Shown: positions 11,201 to 40,834, counted from the first letter of the stretch. The stretch: DNA of 64,000 nt from Waddliaceae bacterium (GCA_963771045.1 CAVYRW010000001.1:2211-66210), one strand, 5' to 3'. Made by a program: numbers and translations. Notes: generated from the letters alone by a model not told the origin.

Positions 11201-11331
11201 TTTCCCTACTATAACAATAAACACTCATTGCCTGTATTGCCCACAGAGCTGATTGTCCACATTTTTTCTTATCTGAATCCCAAAGAGTTAATAGACGTCT
11301 CTTATGTTTCAAAAGATTGGTACTGCATCAC
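11201..11331 (+). pseudogene. N-terminal F-box domain of a gene disrupted by the IS903-like element
   Basis: Translates to LPVLPTELIVHIFSYLNPKELIDVSYVSKDWYCIT up to the target-site duplication. Confidence 0.8.
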
Positions 11332-11393
11332 GGCGTTGTTGCATAAATCACCACTGAGACCACCGAGCTCACTGAGAGATTATGAGAGAGGAA

Positions 11394-11801
11394 TTAAATG
11401 ATTAGACGCCTAATCCCATTTTTTAGAAGTTTTACATTGAAATTGATGAGCAAACCTCTGCCACCACCATTATGCTTAAGATAGGATAGAAGTTGGGCCT
11501 CATGAACAGGCAAGAAATTGGCCACAGATTTTATCTCCAAAATAACCTTATCTTCCACTATCATATCGATCCGGTAGCCTGAGTCTAGCTTTTTATCACG
11601 ATAAATAATAGGTACTGGTATCTGCCGGTTAACTTTCAAACCCGCAAGGTTCAACTCGTAGCAAAGACAAGTTTCGTATGTCGATTCAAGCAAGCCTGGA
11701 CCTAATCTTCGATGAACTTCAATCGCAGCACCTATGATTTCCCCTGTTAAAAGGTCATTTCTTTTTTGGTTGGCTTCTTCAGTTGTGTGGGTACTAGTCA
11801 T
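11394..11801 (-). CDS. GxxExxY protein (PD-(D/E)XK nuclease-like fold)
   Basis: LGPGLLESTY, RIDMIVEDKVILEIKSV and QLLSYLK motifs. Confidence 0.92.
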   Translation of the reverse strand: MTSTHTTEEANQKRNDLLTGEIIGAAIEVHRRLGPGLLESTYETCLCYELNLAGLKVNRQIPVPIIYRDKKLDSGYRIDMIVEDKVILEIKSVANFLPVHEAQLLSYLKHNGGGRGLLINFNVKLLKNGIRRLII

Positions 11802-11885
11802 CTTTTCTCCAAAAAGGGCGAATGCGAGCTTGCCGACAAATACCTAATACTCTAATTTTTAGTTGCAACAAATTGGAGGATCAAG

Positions 11886-12830
11886 ATGAAGGCAAAATAT
11901 CGCATTCGCAACTGGAACGACTATAACAAATCTCTTATTCAAAGGGGAAGCATAACTGTTTGGTTTTCTGAAGATGCTATCAATAAGTGGATGGCTCCAA
12001 AAGAAATAGGAAAAAAGGGGCGTCCAAAACTCTATTCTGATGACGCTATTCTCACCGCGCTCATTATTCGATCGGTTTTTCATCTTCCATTGAGAGCACT
12101 CGAAGGATTTTTGACATCTCTTGTTATGATTTTATCTGTTGGTTTATCGATTCCTTCTTATACTCAAATTTGTCGGAGAGCTAAGTTGTTGGGGCAAGAG
12201 TTGAAGAAACTTTCGAAAAAAAAAGTCACCAATATTGTAATCGATTCAACCGGTTTGAAAGTGTACGGAGAGGGTGAATGGAAAGTTAGGCAGCATGGAA
12301 TCAGTAAAAGGCGAACATGGAGAAAGCTCCATCTGGCAGTCTGCCCTGACTCTCACGAAATTATTTTCGAAATTCTTACTGAAAATAACGTTGCAGATTG
12401 TGAAGTGTATCCAAAACTTCTCGAGGTAATGCCAAAATCAGTTAAGCGCACATATGGAGATGGGGCTTATGATACTAAGCGATGCTATGCTGCAAATGTA
12501 GTTCACGGCTCAATTCCTATTATTCCACCCAATAGGAATGCTGTTTTTCGAGAAAACATATCTCCTTCTTGGAAGATGCGGAATATCAGTTTGCTGGAAA
12601 TTTCAGGTTTAGGAGGTGATGATGATGCAAGAAAATTATGGAAAAAGTTGAAAGGTTATCATCGTCGATCACTTGCAGAAACAGCCATGTTTAGATTTAA
12701 ACGATTCTTTGGAAATGATTTAAGAAGTAGAACTCTGGAAACCCAAAGGGCTGAATCAAGGGCAAAATGTGAAGCACTAAATATAATGACAAAGCTGGGA
12801 ATGCCTGAAAGTGAATTAATAGCAGCTTAA
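11886..12830 (+). CDS. IS903-type DDE transposase
   Basis: NW.DYNKSLIQRGSIT.W, IDSTGLKVYGEGEW, DGAYD and YHRRSLAETAMFRFK motifs. Confidence 0.95.
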   Translation: MKAKYRIRNWNDYNKSLIQRGSITVWFSEDAINKWMAPKEIGKKGRPKLYSDDAILTALIIRSVFHLPLRALEGFLTSLVMILSVGLSIPSYTQICRRAKLLGQELKKLSKKKVTNIVIDSTGLKVYGEGEWKVRQHGISKRRTWRKLHLAVCPDSHEIIFEILTENNVADCEVYPKLLEVMPKSVKRTYGDGAYDTKRCYAANVVHGSIPIIPPNRNAVFRENISPSWKMRNISLLEISGLGGDDDARKLWKKLKGYHRRSLAETAMFRFKRFFGNDLRSRTLETQRAESRAKCEALNIMTKLGMPESELIAA

Positions 12831-13085
12831 ATCAAATCTCTCATATTCTCTCTGTGCGCTCTTGTGAGCTCTGTGGTTAATTACGCAACAAAGCCCTGCA
12901 TCACATATAGTTCTGTAATATGGAAAAAGCATTGTTAAAGGGTTTGCCTTAAAATTTTAAATATTGATCTTAAGGATTCGCAAAATTAATATTGTTTAGA
13001 TCACCCCTTTGAAACAGTCAAATACGCTGCGATTTGGCAAAAAGGTTGGAATCAAATCAAGGAATTTCAAACCAAAATCTCACGC

Positions 13086-36168: not shown

Positions 36169-36340
36169 AGCCTTGTAGCAATATTTATCACAAGAGCACG
36201 CAGAGAGGGTATGAGATCTCATGTCCTATGCTGCTATTAACTCACTCTCTGGCATTCCCAATCTTGTCATGATATTTAGTGCTTTGCATTTTGCTCGAGT
36301 TTCCGCTCGTTGACTCTCAACTACTCTACTTCTTAATTTA
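36169..36340 (-). mobile_element. Diverged 3' end remnant of a relative of the GxxExxY-carrying IS903 element
   Basis: Minus strand encodes LRSRVVESQRAETRAKCKALNIMTRLGMPESELIAA*, followed by the same CACAAGAGCACGCAGAGAG subterminal repeat. Confidence 0.85.
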
Positions 36341-36358
36341 TACCCCGGAATTTTCAAT

Positions 36359-37540
36359 TTATGGAAAGTCGGGCATTGTTCGCACCATAAACTCTTCAAA
36401 GAGGGGAACAGTGAAAGCTATATAGCCATACGCGGGACTATAAATCATACCTTTTTTTATAAGGTTTGTTCTAACAGGGCTTAAAGTAGAAACTTTTGAA
36501 TCAAATTTCTGTGCAATTTCTGCAACTTTATAAGGTCCCTTTCCGAAAGATGCCATCATTCTCATAAATTCCTTTTCCTTAGGTGTCAGCCTATCAAACC
36601 GAACCCTGAAAAAGTTGTTATCCAACTGGTCTATGACTTCCGTTGTTGCTTGATTTATAACTTCGATGGTAATGGGATTTGATTCAGCTCGATTCCATGC
36701 CTTATATCCCCATTCTTGAAGAAAATATGGATAACCCTTTGTATTTTCATAAATTTTTTCTAGCGCTCTTTTTTCAAAATCCACCGATGCTGCAAGCGCA
36801 GGGTCTCTTAATGCTTTATAGGCATTTTCTCTTGACAACTCTCCAATGATGGGAAAATTGAACAGCCGCTCAGCATAAGACTTTGACTCTCCAGCAAGCC
36901 CAGGCAAAACAGGCAGCCCAGCTGCAAGCAAAAGCATAGGAAGTTGTTTTTGTTGGAGTTTATGCATGGCCATGATCAACGCGCCTAATTCTTTAATCGA
37001 AAGATATTGAATCTCATCTACCAATATGGCTACTGCGCAATTTTTGTCTAAAGCAGCCTCTCCTACCGCAACAAATAACTGTTGCAAATCGATTTCGAGG
37101 TCGCCGCTATCCGCAGAACCTAACTCAGGTTCGATATCTAATCCAAGCGTAATTTCTCCATAGCTAACCTTCAAAGAACCGACAAAGCTTTTCAGTACAG
37201 CAAGAGCTCTTTTCGCCTTGTTTCCAAGTCCTGTCATCCTATCGAGTTTGAATAGTAATGTTCTCAAGTAAGGAACTAGCAATGCTCCAAGCGGTTTATC
37301 TTCATGAGCTTCTACAAAAATAATTTGGTAGTCAGCTTTTTCTGCCATTCTCTGGATTTCATTTAGCAATACTGTTTTTCCAACGCCTCGCAGTCCAGTC
37401 AGCAACAAGCTTTTTTCTGGTCTCCCAGCCCGTATCCTTCCAAGTAAAATTTTTGCTTGTTTAAGAATTGGGTCTCTGCCGACGAGCTCGGGAGGAGGGG
37501 CCCCTGCTCCAGGTGAATAAGGATTTTTGATAGGGTCCAA
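36359..37540 (-). CDS. AAA ATPase with a C-terminal winged helix
   Basis: NPYSPGAG.PP, Walker A GLRGVGKT, Walker B ILVDEIQ, GYPYFLQ, C-terminal HTH. Confidence 0.88.
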   Translation of the reverse strand: MDPIKNPYSPGAGAPPPELVGRDPILKQAKILLGRIRAGRPEKSLLLTGLRGVGKTVLLNEIQRMAEKADYQIIFVEAHEDKPLGALLVPYLRTLLFKLDRMTGLGNKAKRALAVLKSFVGSLKVSYGEITLGLDIEPELGSADSGDLEIDLQQLFVAVGEAALDKNCAVAILVDEIQYLSIKELGALIMAMHKLQQKQLPMLLLAAGLPVLPGLAGESKSYAERLFNFPIIGELSRENAYKALRDPALAASVDFEKRALEKIYENTKGYPYFLQEWGYKAWNRAESNPITIEVINQATTEVIDQLDNNFFRVRFDRLTPKEKEFMRMMASFGKGPYKVAEIAQKFDSKVSTLSPVRTNLIKKGMIYSPAYGYIAFTVPLFEEFMVRTMPDFP

Positions 37541-37550
37541 CTTTTACCTC

Positions 37551-37628
37551 TGTTAGGTTATATCAAGTTATAGCAACTTATAGCATAAATTCACTATAAC
37601 TAGCTATAACTTTGTATAAGTACTAACA
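37551..37628. promoter_or_regulatory. Six 10-bp-phased GTTATAGCAA-like sites (three direct, three inverted)
   Basis: GTTATATCAA GTTATAGCAA CTTATAGCAT / TCACTATAAC TAGCTATAAC TTTGTATAAG, bracketed by TGTTAG and CTAACA. Confidence 0.65.
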
Positions 37629-37633
37629 AAAAT

Positions 37634-38028
37634 GGTTCCTGTGAAGAATTGGGGGCGGTCTCAGGTTGATTTCATGAAAAAGAGCTCGCGTGCGTGCCCG
37701 ATTACAAACTAACTACTGGGAAAGTTTGATCAGCATAGCCACAATTCTGAGCAGAAGGCTTCGCCCTTGTCTAAATAGCTGTTCACCAATTAATTGCAAC
37801 TGATTACATATATCTAATATGCTAGCGCATTCAGTTGCCGACCGCTTAGCCATTCGGTAAAATCTGATCTTCTCATTGCTCGAATATTCCCCAGCACCTT
37901 CAGCTATATTTAGAGGTACAGAAAAGTTAAATCGGGCACGGGCACGCACGCGGGCAGGGCACGATTTTATATCAAATCTTTTCCATCAGATTCCTCTAAT
38001 TTTCAACCCCCAATTTTTCACAAGAACC
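37634..38028. mobile_element. 395-bp non-autonomous mobile cassette
   Basis: 22-bp IRs GGTTCCTGTGAAGAATTGGGGG and CCCCCAATTTTTCACAAGAACC; 8-bp TSD ACAAAAAT at 37626-37633 and 38029-38036. Confidence 0.88.
37713..37925 (-). pseudogene. Four-helix-bundle protein (23S rRNA IVS protein family), 5'-truncated
   Basis: SVPLNIAEGAG.YS..EK.RFY.MA.RSATECA.ILD motif. Confidence 0.85.
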
Positions 38029-38299
38029 ACAAAAATGCGTATTTCAAGCAGAATTGACTGACTTAAACTAAGCCAAAAAGCGGTTTGCCGATTAGTCTAA
38101 ACAAACGGTGGAACGAAGAGACACAATATTGTGTCAAATTCTTAGTCCGCATTTCTGGCTCTCTAATGTTGATCGATAATCTGAATCCAAGCACACTCCT
38201 GGTATTTTTCGCAGATTTTACCGAATGGCGAAATTTATATACCAAAGTGTGTGTTTTCAACGGTTGCTGAGCTGAAAACTATTTTAAGCGTACATCTTA

Positions 38300-38547
38300 A
38301 GCAAAACGATTTAAATAATGTATTGCTTCTGAGTACAGATGAGAAAGAGATATTAAATATTAAAAAAACATCGAGTTATATTAAGAAATTAATATAAAAA
38401 TTTATTGAAAGAAAATCTTATGTTATATGTTTTTTTGAGATGAATTTAGATACAAAGAAAATTGATGAAATTTTGGTAGATACAAAAAAGATTTGTTTTC
38501 CTGCTTACGATGAGGAAGCATTCTTGGTATGGAAACGTCATGATTAG
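38300..38547 (+). pseudogene. C-terminal fragment of a paralog of the downstream gene
   Basis: Ends ICFPAYDEEAFLVWKRHD*, similar to IIVNAYDGEAYISWKAH* downstream; the start coordinate is approximate. Confidence 0.55.
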
Positions 38548-38555
38548 GTTAAATT

Positions 38556-40834
38556 ATGAAACGAATGATTCGCCACAGCTTGAATTATGAAAAAACATAC
38601 CCATATGTTCGTGATATTATTCATTGGGGTACTCCATTAACAAAGGTATTGTCAGAAAAAATCGATTTTTCGAAAGGACATTTTTTTATTGACTTACCGG
38701 AAGGGTATATTTTGAGCCGAATTTATAATTTTAAGAATGCGGGGATTTCTTATAAACTAGATGTCGGGGCTGAGAAAAAATTAACCCCAAGTGGCAAGCC
38801 TTATACTCCTAGATTTTATATGTCAACACAAGCTGAATTAGACTATTTTTTAAAGAGATATTTAGATTTAGATGACAAAAATTTCGTTATTATTGATGAA
38901 TATTGTATCTGTTCAGATGGGGTACCCCCCCCCAGGGGGAGTCGTAAACTTCTAACACGTTTTGTTAACCGAGAACTACCTCGTGAATTTGTGTCGTAGG
39001 AAACCGTTTTCTATTTTGAAAATATCGGCGGCGCTTGTTCCGCCATGAATGTATGCTTTAAAACATTCGGTAAAATAATCGAACGAATTTTGAGCACGTA
39101 ACTTCAATGTCATACCAACTGTTAACACCCGTTCGACAAATCGCTCACCTTCTTCTGATTGTGAGCCAAAGCATAGCTTCCTCCAAATGACTCCGCCTCT
39201 AAGACGTTGCTCGGCTGTATTGTTAGTCGGTTCGATATTCTCATGATAGGCAAATACCCATAACATCTCGAACCGTCCAAAAAAATCAGCGCAAGTCGAC
39301 CTCGTTTTATTGCAAATCTCTTTGTGAATTGCACCAGCTTTGAGGAGGACTTTCAAATCTTCTTTTGGGCCTATTTCGATCTTCTCGATCAGTTCGTCCC
39401 TTGCAATCTCACCGTTTTTGTAGCTATGCCAAAGATTGAATATCGACTTTTTACACTCTAACAACCGTTCCCCGATCCATTTATCAAATCCATCCCTGCC
39501 TGCAATCTTTTCAAAATCTCTATCTGCATGCGACCAGCAAAGTTGTCGCAGACCTTCATGCGAATTATAGGCATTATAGCGATCGGTTGTTAAACCCCCT
39601 TTGAAAGAACCAAAGATCTCGCGGAATGCCTTGTTGCTGCGTGAAGCCTTGATTGCGAAAAACACAGTTTCCTTGCCGCTTCCGACCCAAATCCATCTCT
39701 TTTCCGACATCGTTTTCCAACTCGTTTCATCGGCATAAATATGTTCTTCATTTAGAGTGTGTGTCCTAATTTCTTCGTATGGTGCTTTTAAAATCTGACT
39801 AGCTCGGACATGGATTTTACACACGCTGCCGGAACATATCCGAATATTGAGTCTGCCCATTAGAGCACAGACTTGACGTTTGGATAATCTAAACTCTCCT
39901 GAAAGAGAAGTGACGAAACCCATTAATCGGGGACCAAAACCAAATCGCGCTTCTTCGGGAATATCAGCCTTTACATGCTTACCACATCCGCTACACTGAC
40001 AGGTGTTAATGTTGTATTGAGTAACTTCCGGAGGAGCGTCCGGTAATTCCACTACTTGTCGTACATCCGTTCTGACCACCTCCGAATTAAACGAGTGGGA
40101 GTGGCAGTTCGGACAAGTGTCCGGCTTTATGTTATGCAGCGACTGCACCTGATTAATTGGAACTAGTTGACGGGGGTGGCCCTTATGACCTTTTTGTGCT
40201 CCCTGTTTACGCCCGTAGGTTCCTTCTTTCTTTGAGCTCTGAAAGGATCTTGCGAGGGGGGCTTAGAGCTATTCGAAGAGTTGGTGTTGAGTTTATCTTC
40301 GAGCTCCTTAACTTTTGCCTTGAGTGCCTGGTTTTCCTTTTTGAGGATTTCAATTTCCTCCAAGGCTTTATTCAGCTTTTCAAAGAGTTCTTCGTAGGTT
40401 GGCTTCATGTTATAAAGTGGTTTTGAACAACCAGAATAATAATAAAAATCTTATTTTATGCCGTATAAAATTTTTATTATTTTTGTGGGGTAGCGCGCGA
40501 GGCGGTAGCCGTTCCTAGAGTTACCCCGTGAACGGATACTGAATATTTACTAAGAGCGGGAGATAAGAATTTACAAATCGACAATGTGGCTATTGGTTTT
40601 GAAGGAGACTATGCCAGTCACATATTAACGTCTAAAAATTCAGAAGGTGATATTTCCAATTCTACAAGCTGCTCTTGTTATGACGAGCATACAGTCATTG
40701 TTTTGTCACGAGGAGATTTAATTTTTTCAAATCATTTTGTTAGTGATAATCAAGAGACGATTTTAAATAATGTCGAGTATATAATTGTTAATGCTTATGA
40801 TGGAGAAGCTTATATAAGTTGGAAAGCTCATTAA
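38556..40834 (+). pseudogene. Hypothetical protein (about 212 aa) interrupted by IS66 copy 2
   Basis: Removing the IS and one TSD joins ...VIIDEY to LLRAGDKNLQIDNVAIG... in frame. Confidence 0.8.
38905..40539 (-). mobile_element. IS66-family element, copy 2 (transposase frameshifted)
   Basis: Near-identical to copy 1; 8-bp TSD TGAATATT at 38897-38904 and 40540-40547. Confidence 0.95.

Follow-up and report, generated by a model that had tools for sequence, protein, structure and literature searches.

A probable ISL3-derived mobile insertion cassette carries a decayed four-helix-bundle gene between inverted hexamer arrays in a chlamydial genome

Mobile insertion cassettes (MICs) and MITEs consist of insertion sequence (IS) ends without a transposase and are mobilised in trans, and transporter ISs are ISs that carry passenger genes (PMC3129680, PMC4133298). 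ISPpu12a is an ISL3-family element with passenger genes (PMC4133298), and Tn7546, an ISL3-family transposon that also carries passenger genes, is accompanied by an 8-bp AT-rich duplication (PMC9782665). Small gene-bearing inserts are also found in ribosomal RNA genes, where 23S rRNA intervening sequences (IVSs) that contain an ORF, of the S23p type, are described in Coxiella, at helix 45, and in Leptospira (PMC4990558). The Coxiella IVS has a 28-bp stem and is cleaved by RNase III (PMC4990558). In the same account, the origin and spread of gene-bearing rRNA IVSs are described as unclear, and the old hypotheses that it recounts hold them to be either remnants of transposition or a mobile element whose ORF aids mobility (PMC4990558). 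Proteins of PF05635 resemble Avd, the accessory protein of diversity-generating retroelements (DGRs) (PMC10053308).

The DNA window considered here, which is the whole 64-kb stretch that was analysed, comes from a chlamydial genome of 2.57 Mb in five contigs that is 90.6% complete. Within it, a 395-base element at 37634-38028 is probably a non-autonomous derivative of an ISL3-family IS, in other words a MIC, that carries an IVS-type cassette. Judged from its sequence, the cargo is such a cassette, in which a four-helix-bundle (4HB, Avd-like) gene of the PF05635/TIGR02436 family is placed within inverted arrays of six-base repeats and about 28 nt of outer repeat. The class, a MIC of an ISL3 IS, is known; the kind of cargo is unusual and apparently undescribed. 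An initial annotation of the window had described a transposase-free unit delimited by IS-type inverted repeats and an 8-bp duplication, with inner repeat arms around a 5′-truncated gene, and each of these features was found where it had been placed, with no transposase ORF inside and with exact copies of the duplicated 8-mer.

The terminal inverted repeats are 22 nt long and lie at 37634-37655 (+ strand, GGTTCCTGTGAAGAATTGGGGG), beside the cargo gene's 3′ end, and at 38007-38028 (- strand), where a pattern match identifies the complement of GGTTCCTGTGAAGAATTGGGGG with 2 mismatches. This pair is the sole match to the pattern in the 64-kb window when up to 3 mismatches are allowed, and two such matches arose in 0 of 100 shuffles. 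An exact 8-bp duplication (8/8), ACAAAAAT, abuts both ends at 37626-37633 and 38029-38036. Inward from the left end, 37656-37683 holds 8 nt of subterminal sequence and then that portion of the cassette's inverted repeat which lies outside the hexamers (GGTTGATTTCATGAAAAAGA); in alignments this portion follows the downstream arm in the relatives L122, L123 and L124 and in an element of the congener G001. It is succeeded at 37684-37703 by an arm of about 3 hexamer units of the GTGCCC type (GCTCGCGTGCGTGCCCGATT), downstream in the sense of the gene, that recurs in this genome's other copies. The arm that faces it across the gene, of the GGGCAC type with about 5 units (AATCGGGCACGGGCACGCACGCGGGCAGGGCACG), occupies 37930-37963 on the upstream side, and its 26-nt core is also present in other Chlamydiales genomes. 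Pairing between the arms occurs in two registers, offset from each other by 6 nt: one of 17 nt at 94% and one of 11 nt at 100%. Beyond the upstream arm, 37964-38006 comprises the outer part of the cassette's inverted repeat (ATTTTATATCAAATCTTTTCCATCAG...) and about 12 nt of subterminal sequence, as aligned with the G001 element and L122. Sequence that separates the IS ends from the outer repeat of the cassette therefore amounts to 8 nt on one side and 12 nt on the other. The only ORF of at least 60 aa wholly within the element is the 78-aa PF05635 remnant; a 61-aa ORF (37876-38061) overruns the right end.

The neighbours of the element are an AAA ATPase gene, whose start lies 94 nt away and which the element precedes, and an IS66-family transposase gene. 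Upstream of the ATPase gene (AAA_16, 36359-37540) there is an imperfect 26-nt palindrome of TTATAGC-like units at 37558-37619, which is kept with the gene in L002 (another family, 83% identity), where homology ends 7 nt before the duplication. On the far side of the element, the 218 nt at 38211-38428 recur at C4:12894-13111 with 100% identity, and 38162-38210 has matches of 96-98% at C4:1197702 and C4:1237760; this repeat (38162-38428) is adjoined by the IS66-family transposase, which is split in two ORFs (390 aa, PF03050; 81 aa, DUF6444) at 38976-40408. An orthologous empty site was not found in 40 relatives searched with a 1195-nt query: in an alignment of six loci, homology upstream of the ATPase gene stops at 37619 and the right flank is unmatched, and two congeners are without the region. 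Relatives that carry the ATPase gene without the element do exist. Among three soil DNA runs of one study, X1 yielded a contig of 180 nt that agrees with 37592-37771 throughout (0 differences) and spans the left junction with the insertion in place. A joint skipping the element was not seen in the three runs, of which X3 gave diverged pieces only. The search of public reads listed no RNA run containing this stretch.

The ends of the element are, on sequence grounds, those of an ISL3-family IS, a family in which 8 bp is the usual length of the target duplication. Complete ISs are bounded by the same end of about 25 nt, as illustrated by L033:1557-2951 from a scan of species-representative genomes, with a 402-aa transposase (PF01610 E 8e-72; NF033550 299.7 bits, cut-off 180), and by L117:228-1611 from a 4-Mb chlamydial genome (G136), with an open transposase frame of 426 residues (PF01610/NF033550). 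With up to 3 mismatches, the end is present in 7 of the 251 genomes of the order. G136 has 43 ends, and next to its full IS it holds the transposase-less elements L118 (133 bp) and L119 (328 bp). A further transposase-less sibling lies in the window's own genome at C4:1230676-1231746 (L202:77-1147; 1071 bp, flanks AAAAACAT and AAAAAAAT), and its cargo is a frameshifted Cass2/GyrI-like gene together with the last 42 residues of an ISL3 transposase. L118, L119 and this sibling are all flanked by 8-bp AT-rich duplications that match at 7 of 8 positions. Two congeners hold elements with the same ends, one of 633 bp with unrelated non-coding contents (G002:C214) and one of 164 bp that is gene-less (G001, L007:365-528), and no clear duplication was seen around either. 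Both ends together with a perfect duplication are seen in the window copy only. As these ends enclose unrelated contents in transposase-less siblings of 133 to 1071 bp, we place the element among the mobile insertion cassettes.

The initial annotation had made its reading depend on other elements sharing these ends, and they do recur on other elements. It had also called for a search for an autonomous parent in this genome; complete ISL3 ISs were found in L033 and L117, but none here, where the one PF01610 match among 12 candidates is the 42-residue C-terminal remnant and an intact ISL3 transposase was not found (in a genome 90.6% complete). When the genome_contigs set was scanned for more MIC copies with the junction of outer repeat and IS end, the G001 record alone was returned.

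The cargo gene is recognisable from its 3′ portion. The 78-aa ORF at 37713-37949 (- strand) matches PF05635 (23S_rRNA_IVP) with E 6.3e-15 and 55.7 bits (cut-off 33.8) over profile positions 41-105 of 106, and TIGR02436 with E 1.3e-14 and 54.3 bits (cut-off 24) over positions 37-104 of 109. Because these partial matches begin at positions 41 and 37, the ORF is 5′-truncated, which agrees with the initial annotation's view of the cargo as a truncated 4HB gene of the IVS-protein/Avd-like family. A complete four-helix domain is absent from the ORF, with profile positions 1-40, corresponding to helix 1 and part of helix 2, missing. Over the part that both have in common, the ORF is 99% identical to P0001, a full-length relative of 115 aa. 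Alignment with P0001 and L122-L124 assigns 37713-37922 to P0001 codons 47-115 and the stop, and 37923-37949 to the first nine codons of the ORF (MRARARFNF), which read the junction and the repeat arm. The same alignment indicates that the window copy is without about 190 nt, made up of a leader of about 50 nt and codons 1-46. A protein search returned 2163 relatives, mostly of 115-130 aa and many on very short contigs, and the solved relative 2GSC was matched at E 8.8e-13 using an alignment profile.

Comparison across the homologues indicates that the inner arms belong to the gene cassette and not to the IS, and that they are a family-wide trait not peculiar to this locus. Arms were scored as the best inverted repeat between the 300-nt flanks of a gene, a repeat of the test at an offset of 1 kb serving as the control, and a score of at least 14 was reached by 54 of the 84 gene copies in genome_contigs versus 3 of 149 shifted controls. 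The gene was located in 79 loci of the genome set, 18 of them from one 4.26-Mb record (L069). For metagenome contigs (80 loci), arms were present in 34 of the 66 copies that had 100 nt or more of sequence to each side. Pooled, 90 of 153 homologous gene copies from many phyla lie between inverted hexamer arrays, about 22 of the arm-positive copies coming from one multi-copy genome and hence not being independent. Each cassette uses one unit for both arms, in opposite orientation and often in unequal numbers, and the arms of relatives reach 60-106 nt. The unit itself varies by lineage, with CGTGCC in the window clade and in some delta-proteobacterial, planctomycete and lentisphaeral records, and CGTGCT, CGTACT, CCCTTG, GTTCAA, AACTTA and others elsewhere. 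Rfam at its gathering threshold, applied to 14 loci including the window region, returned tRNA and a group II intron domain only and no family matching the arms, and no description of hexamer-repeat arms around this gene family was found in the literature searched on the family and flanking repeats, in which the family is named by six papers only.

Several individual loci show further arrangements. L069 has four 4HB genes in tandem within 4.2 kb, with spacers bounded by inverted CGTGCT/CGTGAA arms in an array-like pattern. At L055:1654-2350, a cassette lies by a tRNA gene and the whole hairpin (arm, conserved loop of about 50 nt, arm) is found on both sides, so that the hairpin is duplicated around the gene. 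At L063:2364-2534, a group II intron domain (RF02001, 120 bits) lies about 130 nt downstream of a 4HB gene.

How cassette and IS are joined can be followed in the closest relatives. Two metagenome contigs, L122 and L123 (83% identity), hold a full gene between CGTGCC-type arms. Beyond the arms of L122 there is about 28 nt of further inverted repeat (GATTTCATGAAAAAGATTTGATAAAAAG), for a total of 67 nt, and in the window element this same outer repeat separates the arms from the IS ends. A complete pair of ISL3 ends was not found at L122 or L123. L124 presents, in order, an ISL3 transposase gene (PF01610 E 2e-57, frameshifted), the 4HB gene, one arm, the outer repeat and an ISL3-type end; the 3′ side of the window gene is arranged alike, with similar spacing, and the two junctions bear a moderate resemblance only. 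The 4HB gene of L124 has lost its start and contains one internal stop. We take L124 to represent the parent type, in which an IS carries the cassette as its passenger, and not the parent itself, because it is decayed and has no upstream arm. The 164-bp G001 element corresponds to a window element from which one arm and the gene have been removed; it keeps both outer repeats, has an AATCG/CGATT microhomology at the junction, and is therefore derived from a cassette-bearing form.

The direction of capture could also have been the reverse. A self-mobile 4HB hairpin cassette may have entered the centre of an existing ISL3 MITE or IS, much as IVSs occupy the tips of rRNA helices, and been carried along without ever being captured, which we regard as possible, if unlikely. 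The cassette does sit in the middle of a palindromic element, G136 has MITEs of the same IS family without hexamer arms, the same-clade cassettes L122 and L123 are without a complete pair of IS ends, and the gene plus one arm is bounded by short direct repeats (CGATT). Insertion of a cassette is documented in another chlamydial family, where a full 4HB cassette with the same arm core lies between rnc, the RNase III gene, and radA (G012:C6:276600-277700; L204); in G202, G210 and G084 the two genes either adjoin directly or are separated by 19 nt, which provides the empty site, and the insert is flanked by a possible imperfect direct repeat of 9-10 bp (AATAAACGAT / AATAACGAT). Gene-less hairpins with the same arms, consisting of inverted pairs of the GGGCAC-type arm of about 26 nt around unrelated loops of 10-230 nt, are scattered in G012 and occur also in G210, G025 and G005 (e.g. 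L011-L028, L205, L206). G012 contains 27 arm units versus 0 in a reversed-pattern control, and G210 gave 43 BLAST matches, mostly to the arm part of the query. Several points stand against entry of the cassette into a pre-existing element. The interior left to such a MITE, between the IS ends and the outer repeat, would be nearly nil (the 8 and 12 nt given above); the gene-less G001 element keeps one arm and both outer repeats, and so derives from a cassette-bearing form and not the reverse; consistent outer duplications were not found around cassettes without IS ends (14 examined); and we know of no mechanism or enzyme for cassette insertion.

The idea that the 4HB protein drives the spread of the gene-less hairpins is weakened by two genomes, G210 (98% complete) and G202 (99% complete), in which a PF05635 match is absent; it is thus not obvious that the hairpins depend on the protein for their persistence. 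A broader and rather doubtful proposal is that the hexamer-armed 4HB cassette constitutes a distinct, undescribed small selfish module, an extra-ribosomal form of the gene-bearing rRNA IVSs, which would enter new sites alone, leave gene-less hairpins behind, and invade the centres of palindromic DNA such as an IS or a MITE that then spreads it with the efficiency of a transposase. If true, the locus would capture in the act the connection of IVS-type elements with classical transposons, a connection suspected ever since the discovery of IVSs.

Under the preferred reading, that of a MIC with the cassette as its passenger, the element in this genome is a fossil, because its gene has lost codons 1-46 together with the leader, a cognate transposase in intact form was not found, and all sibling copies are damaged. 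PF05635 matches in the genome are two only (7 candidates scored), the window copy and C4:375260-375672. The latter has one IS end, both arms, the leader and a true start, with an in-frame deletion of codons 25-62 and no second IS end. C4:1597083-1597204 has both arms, the last ~50 nt of the gene and one IS end, and shorter fragments with the same junctions lie at C4:1482012, C4:326988 and C4:2267040. All five share either the junction of IS end and arm or that of arm and gene, and each is damaged differently. No tRNA is present at the C4:375260-375672 copy or in the window. A promoter and terminator scan of 37500-38150 found sites no commoner than in shuffles and none positioned to drive the ORF, and this absence of an excess of promoter-like sites agrees with the loss of the leader.

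These same data bear on whether the locus retains a function. The position of the element, 94 nt upstream of the ATPase start and beside the conserved palindrome at 37558-37619, might suggest that the nested hairpin was co-opted as a regulatory or a terminator/insulator element for the AAA-ATPase gene, and an open frame 99% identical to P0001 over the shared part might suggest that the 78-aa ORF is still a working protein. Both are highly improbable, however, given an ORF that is without profile positions 1-40 and the leader, promoter-like sites that are no commoner than in shuffles and not placed to drive it, relatives that bear the ATPase gene without the element, and sibling copies that are all differently broken. 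That two solo ISL3 ends, which do occur in this and other genomes, came to stand by chance around an unrelated cassette and that the unit never moved as one is scarcely credible in view of the exact 8-bp direct repeat immediately outside both ends, the two end-pattern matches in none of the shuffles, and an end/arm junction that recurs at four other places in the genome and in a congener.

The initial annotation had also suggested that the inner repeats could fold a transcript into a stem around the ORF. Predicted MFE folds are in keeping with this, with nested stems on both strands (z -5.7 and -5.4), a result that any inverted repeat would give likewise, and the stem in the window element is short (17 nt). 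The candidate that the element is itself an IVS within a 23S rRNA gene was rejected: it lies upstream of the ATPase gene, and the genome's own 23S genes, at C4:933572 and C4:2027446, are full-length, matching the model over positions 1-2925 in 2951 nt. Similarity to 23S was found at 0 of 159 homologue loci.

The mechanism by which the element could have reached its present state comprises several steps. The line would begin with an ISL3 IS in which the cassette rode as a passenger beside one end, in the arrangement of L124, and which subsequently lost its transposase gene. An ISL3 transposase acting in trans would then have cut at the ends of about 22 nt and, in a single insertion event, placed the unit 94 nt ahead of the AAA-ATPase gene, which would have created the duplication. 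Further deletions between microhomologies may have produced the copy in the window, the fragments at other places of this genome and the congener's gene-less element of 164 bp. In an intact cassette, the arms would be expected to pair in a read-through transcript and form a long stem like the RNase III-cut stems of rRNA IVSs, and by analogy such an RNase III-type stem might excise or insulate the module.

In essence, the locus is sequence evidence that a 4HB-gene module with stem-forming arms can sit inside the ends of a DDE transposon and insert as one unit, the latter because the 8-bp duplication is exact. Together with its relatives it places a decay series at hand, from an IS with a passenger, to a MIC, to a gene-less MITE. 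What it adds to the hexamer-arm cassettes is a duplication made by a transposase along with this series, and its value lies in the evidence that ordinary transposases can move IVS-type gene-in-hairpin modules and in the defined substrates that it offers for trans-mobilisation and RNase III tests. The initial annotation had gone further, proposing that repeat-bracketed small-gene modules hitchhike on IS ends as a general dissemination route; what is shown here covers one lineage and stops short of a general route, and the idea is already known from MICs and transporter ISs (PMC3129680).

It had likewise matched the layout to that of the GxxExxY element at about 11330-12893 of the window. The likeness extends to a small IVS-type gene inside IS ends, but the GxxExxY element is an autonomous IS5-family IS of 1564 bp with its own 314-aa transposase (NF033579, 289 bits) at 11886-12830 (+). 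Its passenger gene at 11394-11801 (-) is of TIGR04256, PD-(D/E)XK, and its IRs of about 58 nt hold three 9-mer subterminal repeats and are flanked by 9-bp duplications. The window's genome has 18 PF13366 matches, 16 of them full-length. The IS5-family transposase that belongs to the GxxExxY element is also represented by a C-terminal remnant, a short ORF at 36226-36399 (-) that ends ...RAETRAKCKALNIMTRLGMPESELIAA and lies immediately downstream of the ATPase gene.

Relative to described systems, the element resembles MICs, MITEs and transporter ISs in having the IRs of a known IS family, a duplication of the length usual for that family, no transposase, a passenger gene, and siblings with other contents. 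It differs from MICs and MITEs in that the cargo is itself a repeat-bounded module, the IVS-type cassette, in its low copy number with all copies decayed, and in that its trans-mobilisation is deduced. With ISPpu12a and Tn7546 it shares ends of the PF01610/NF033550 family, an 8-bp AT-rich duplication and, in L124, a passenger beside one end; unlike them, the window element is without a transposase gene, and the passenger is a four-helix-bundle gene and not a metal or lipoprotein gene. As in the 23S IVSs, a gene of the same family lies between complementary termini that are predicted to be able to form a long stem. In contrast to those IVSs, the window cassette lies outside rRNA, and its arms are arrays of six-base units. 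Finally, the cargo belongs to a protein fold family homologous to Avd, whereas, unlike in a DGR, there is neither a reverse transcriptase nor a template/variable repeat nearby, and the genome's one RVT_1 match, at C2:84164-84775, is on another contig, away from both 4HB copies.
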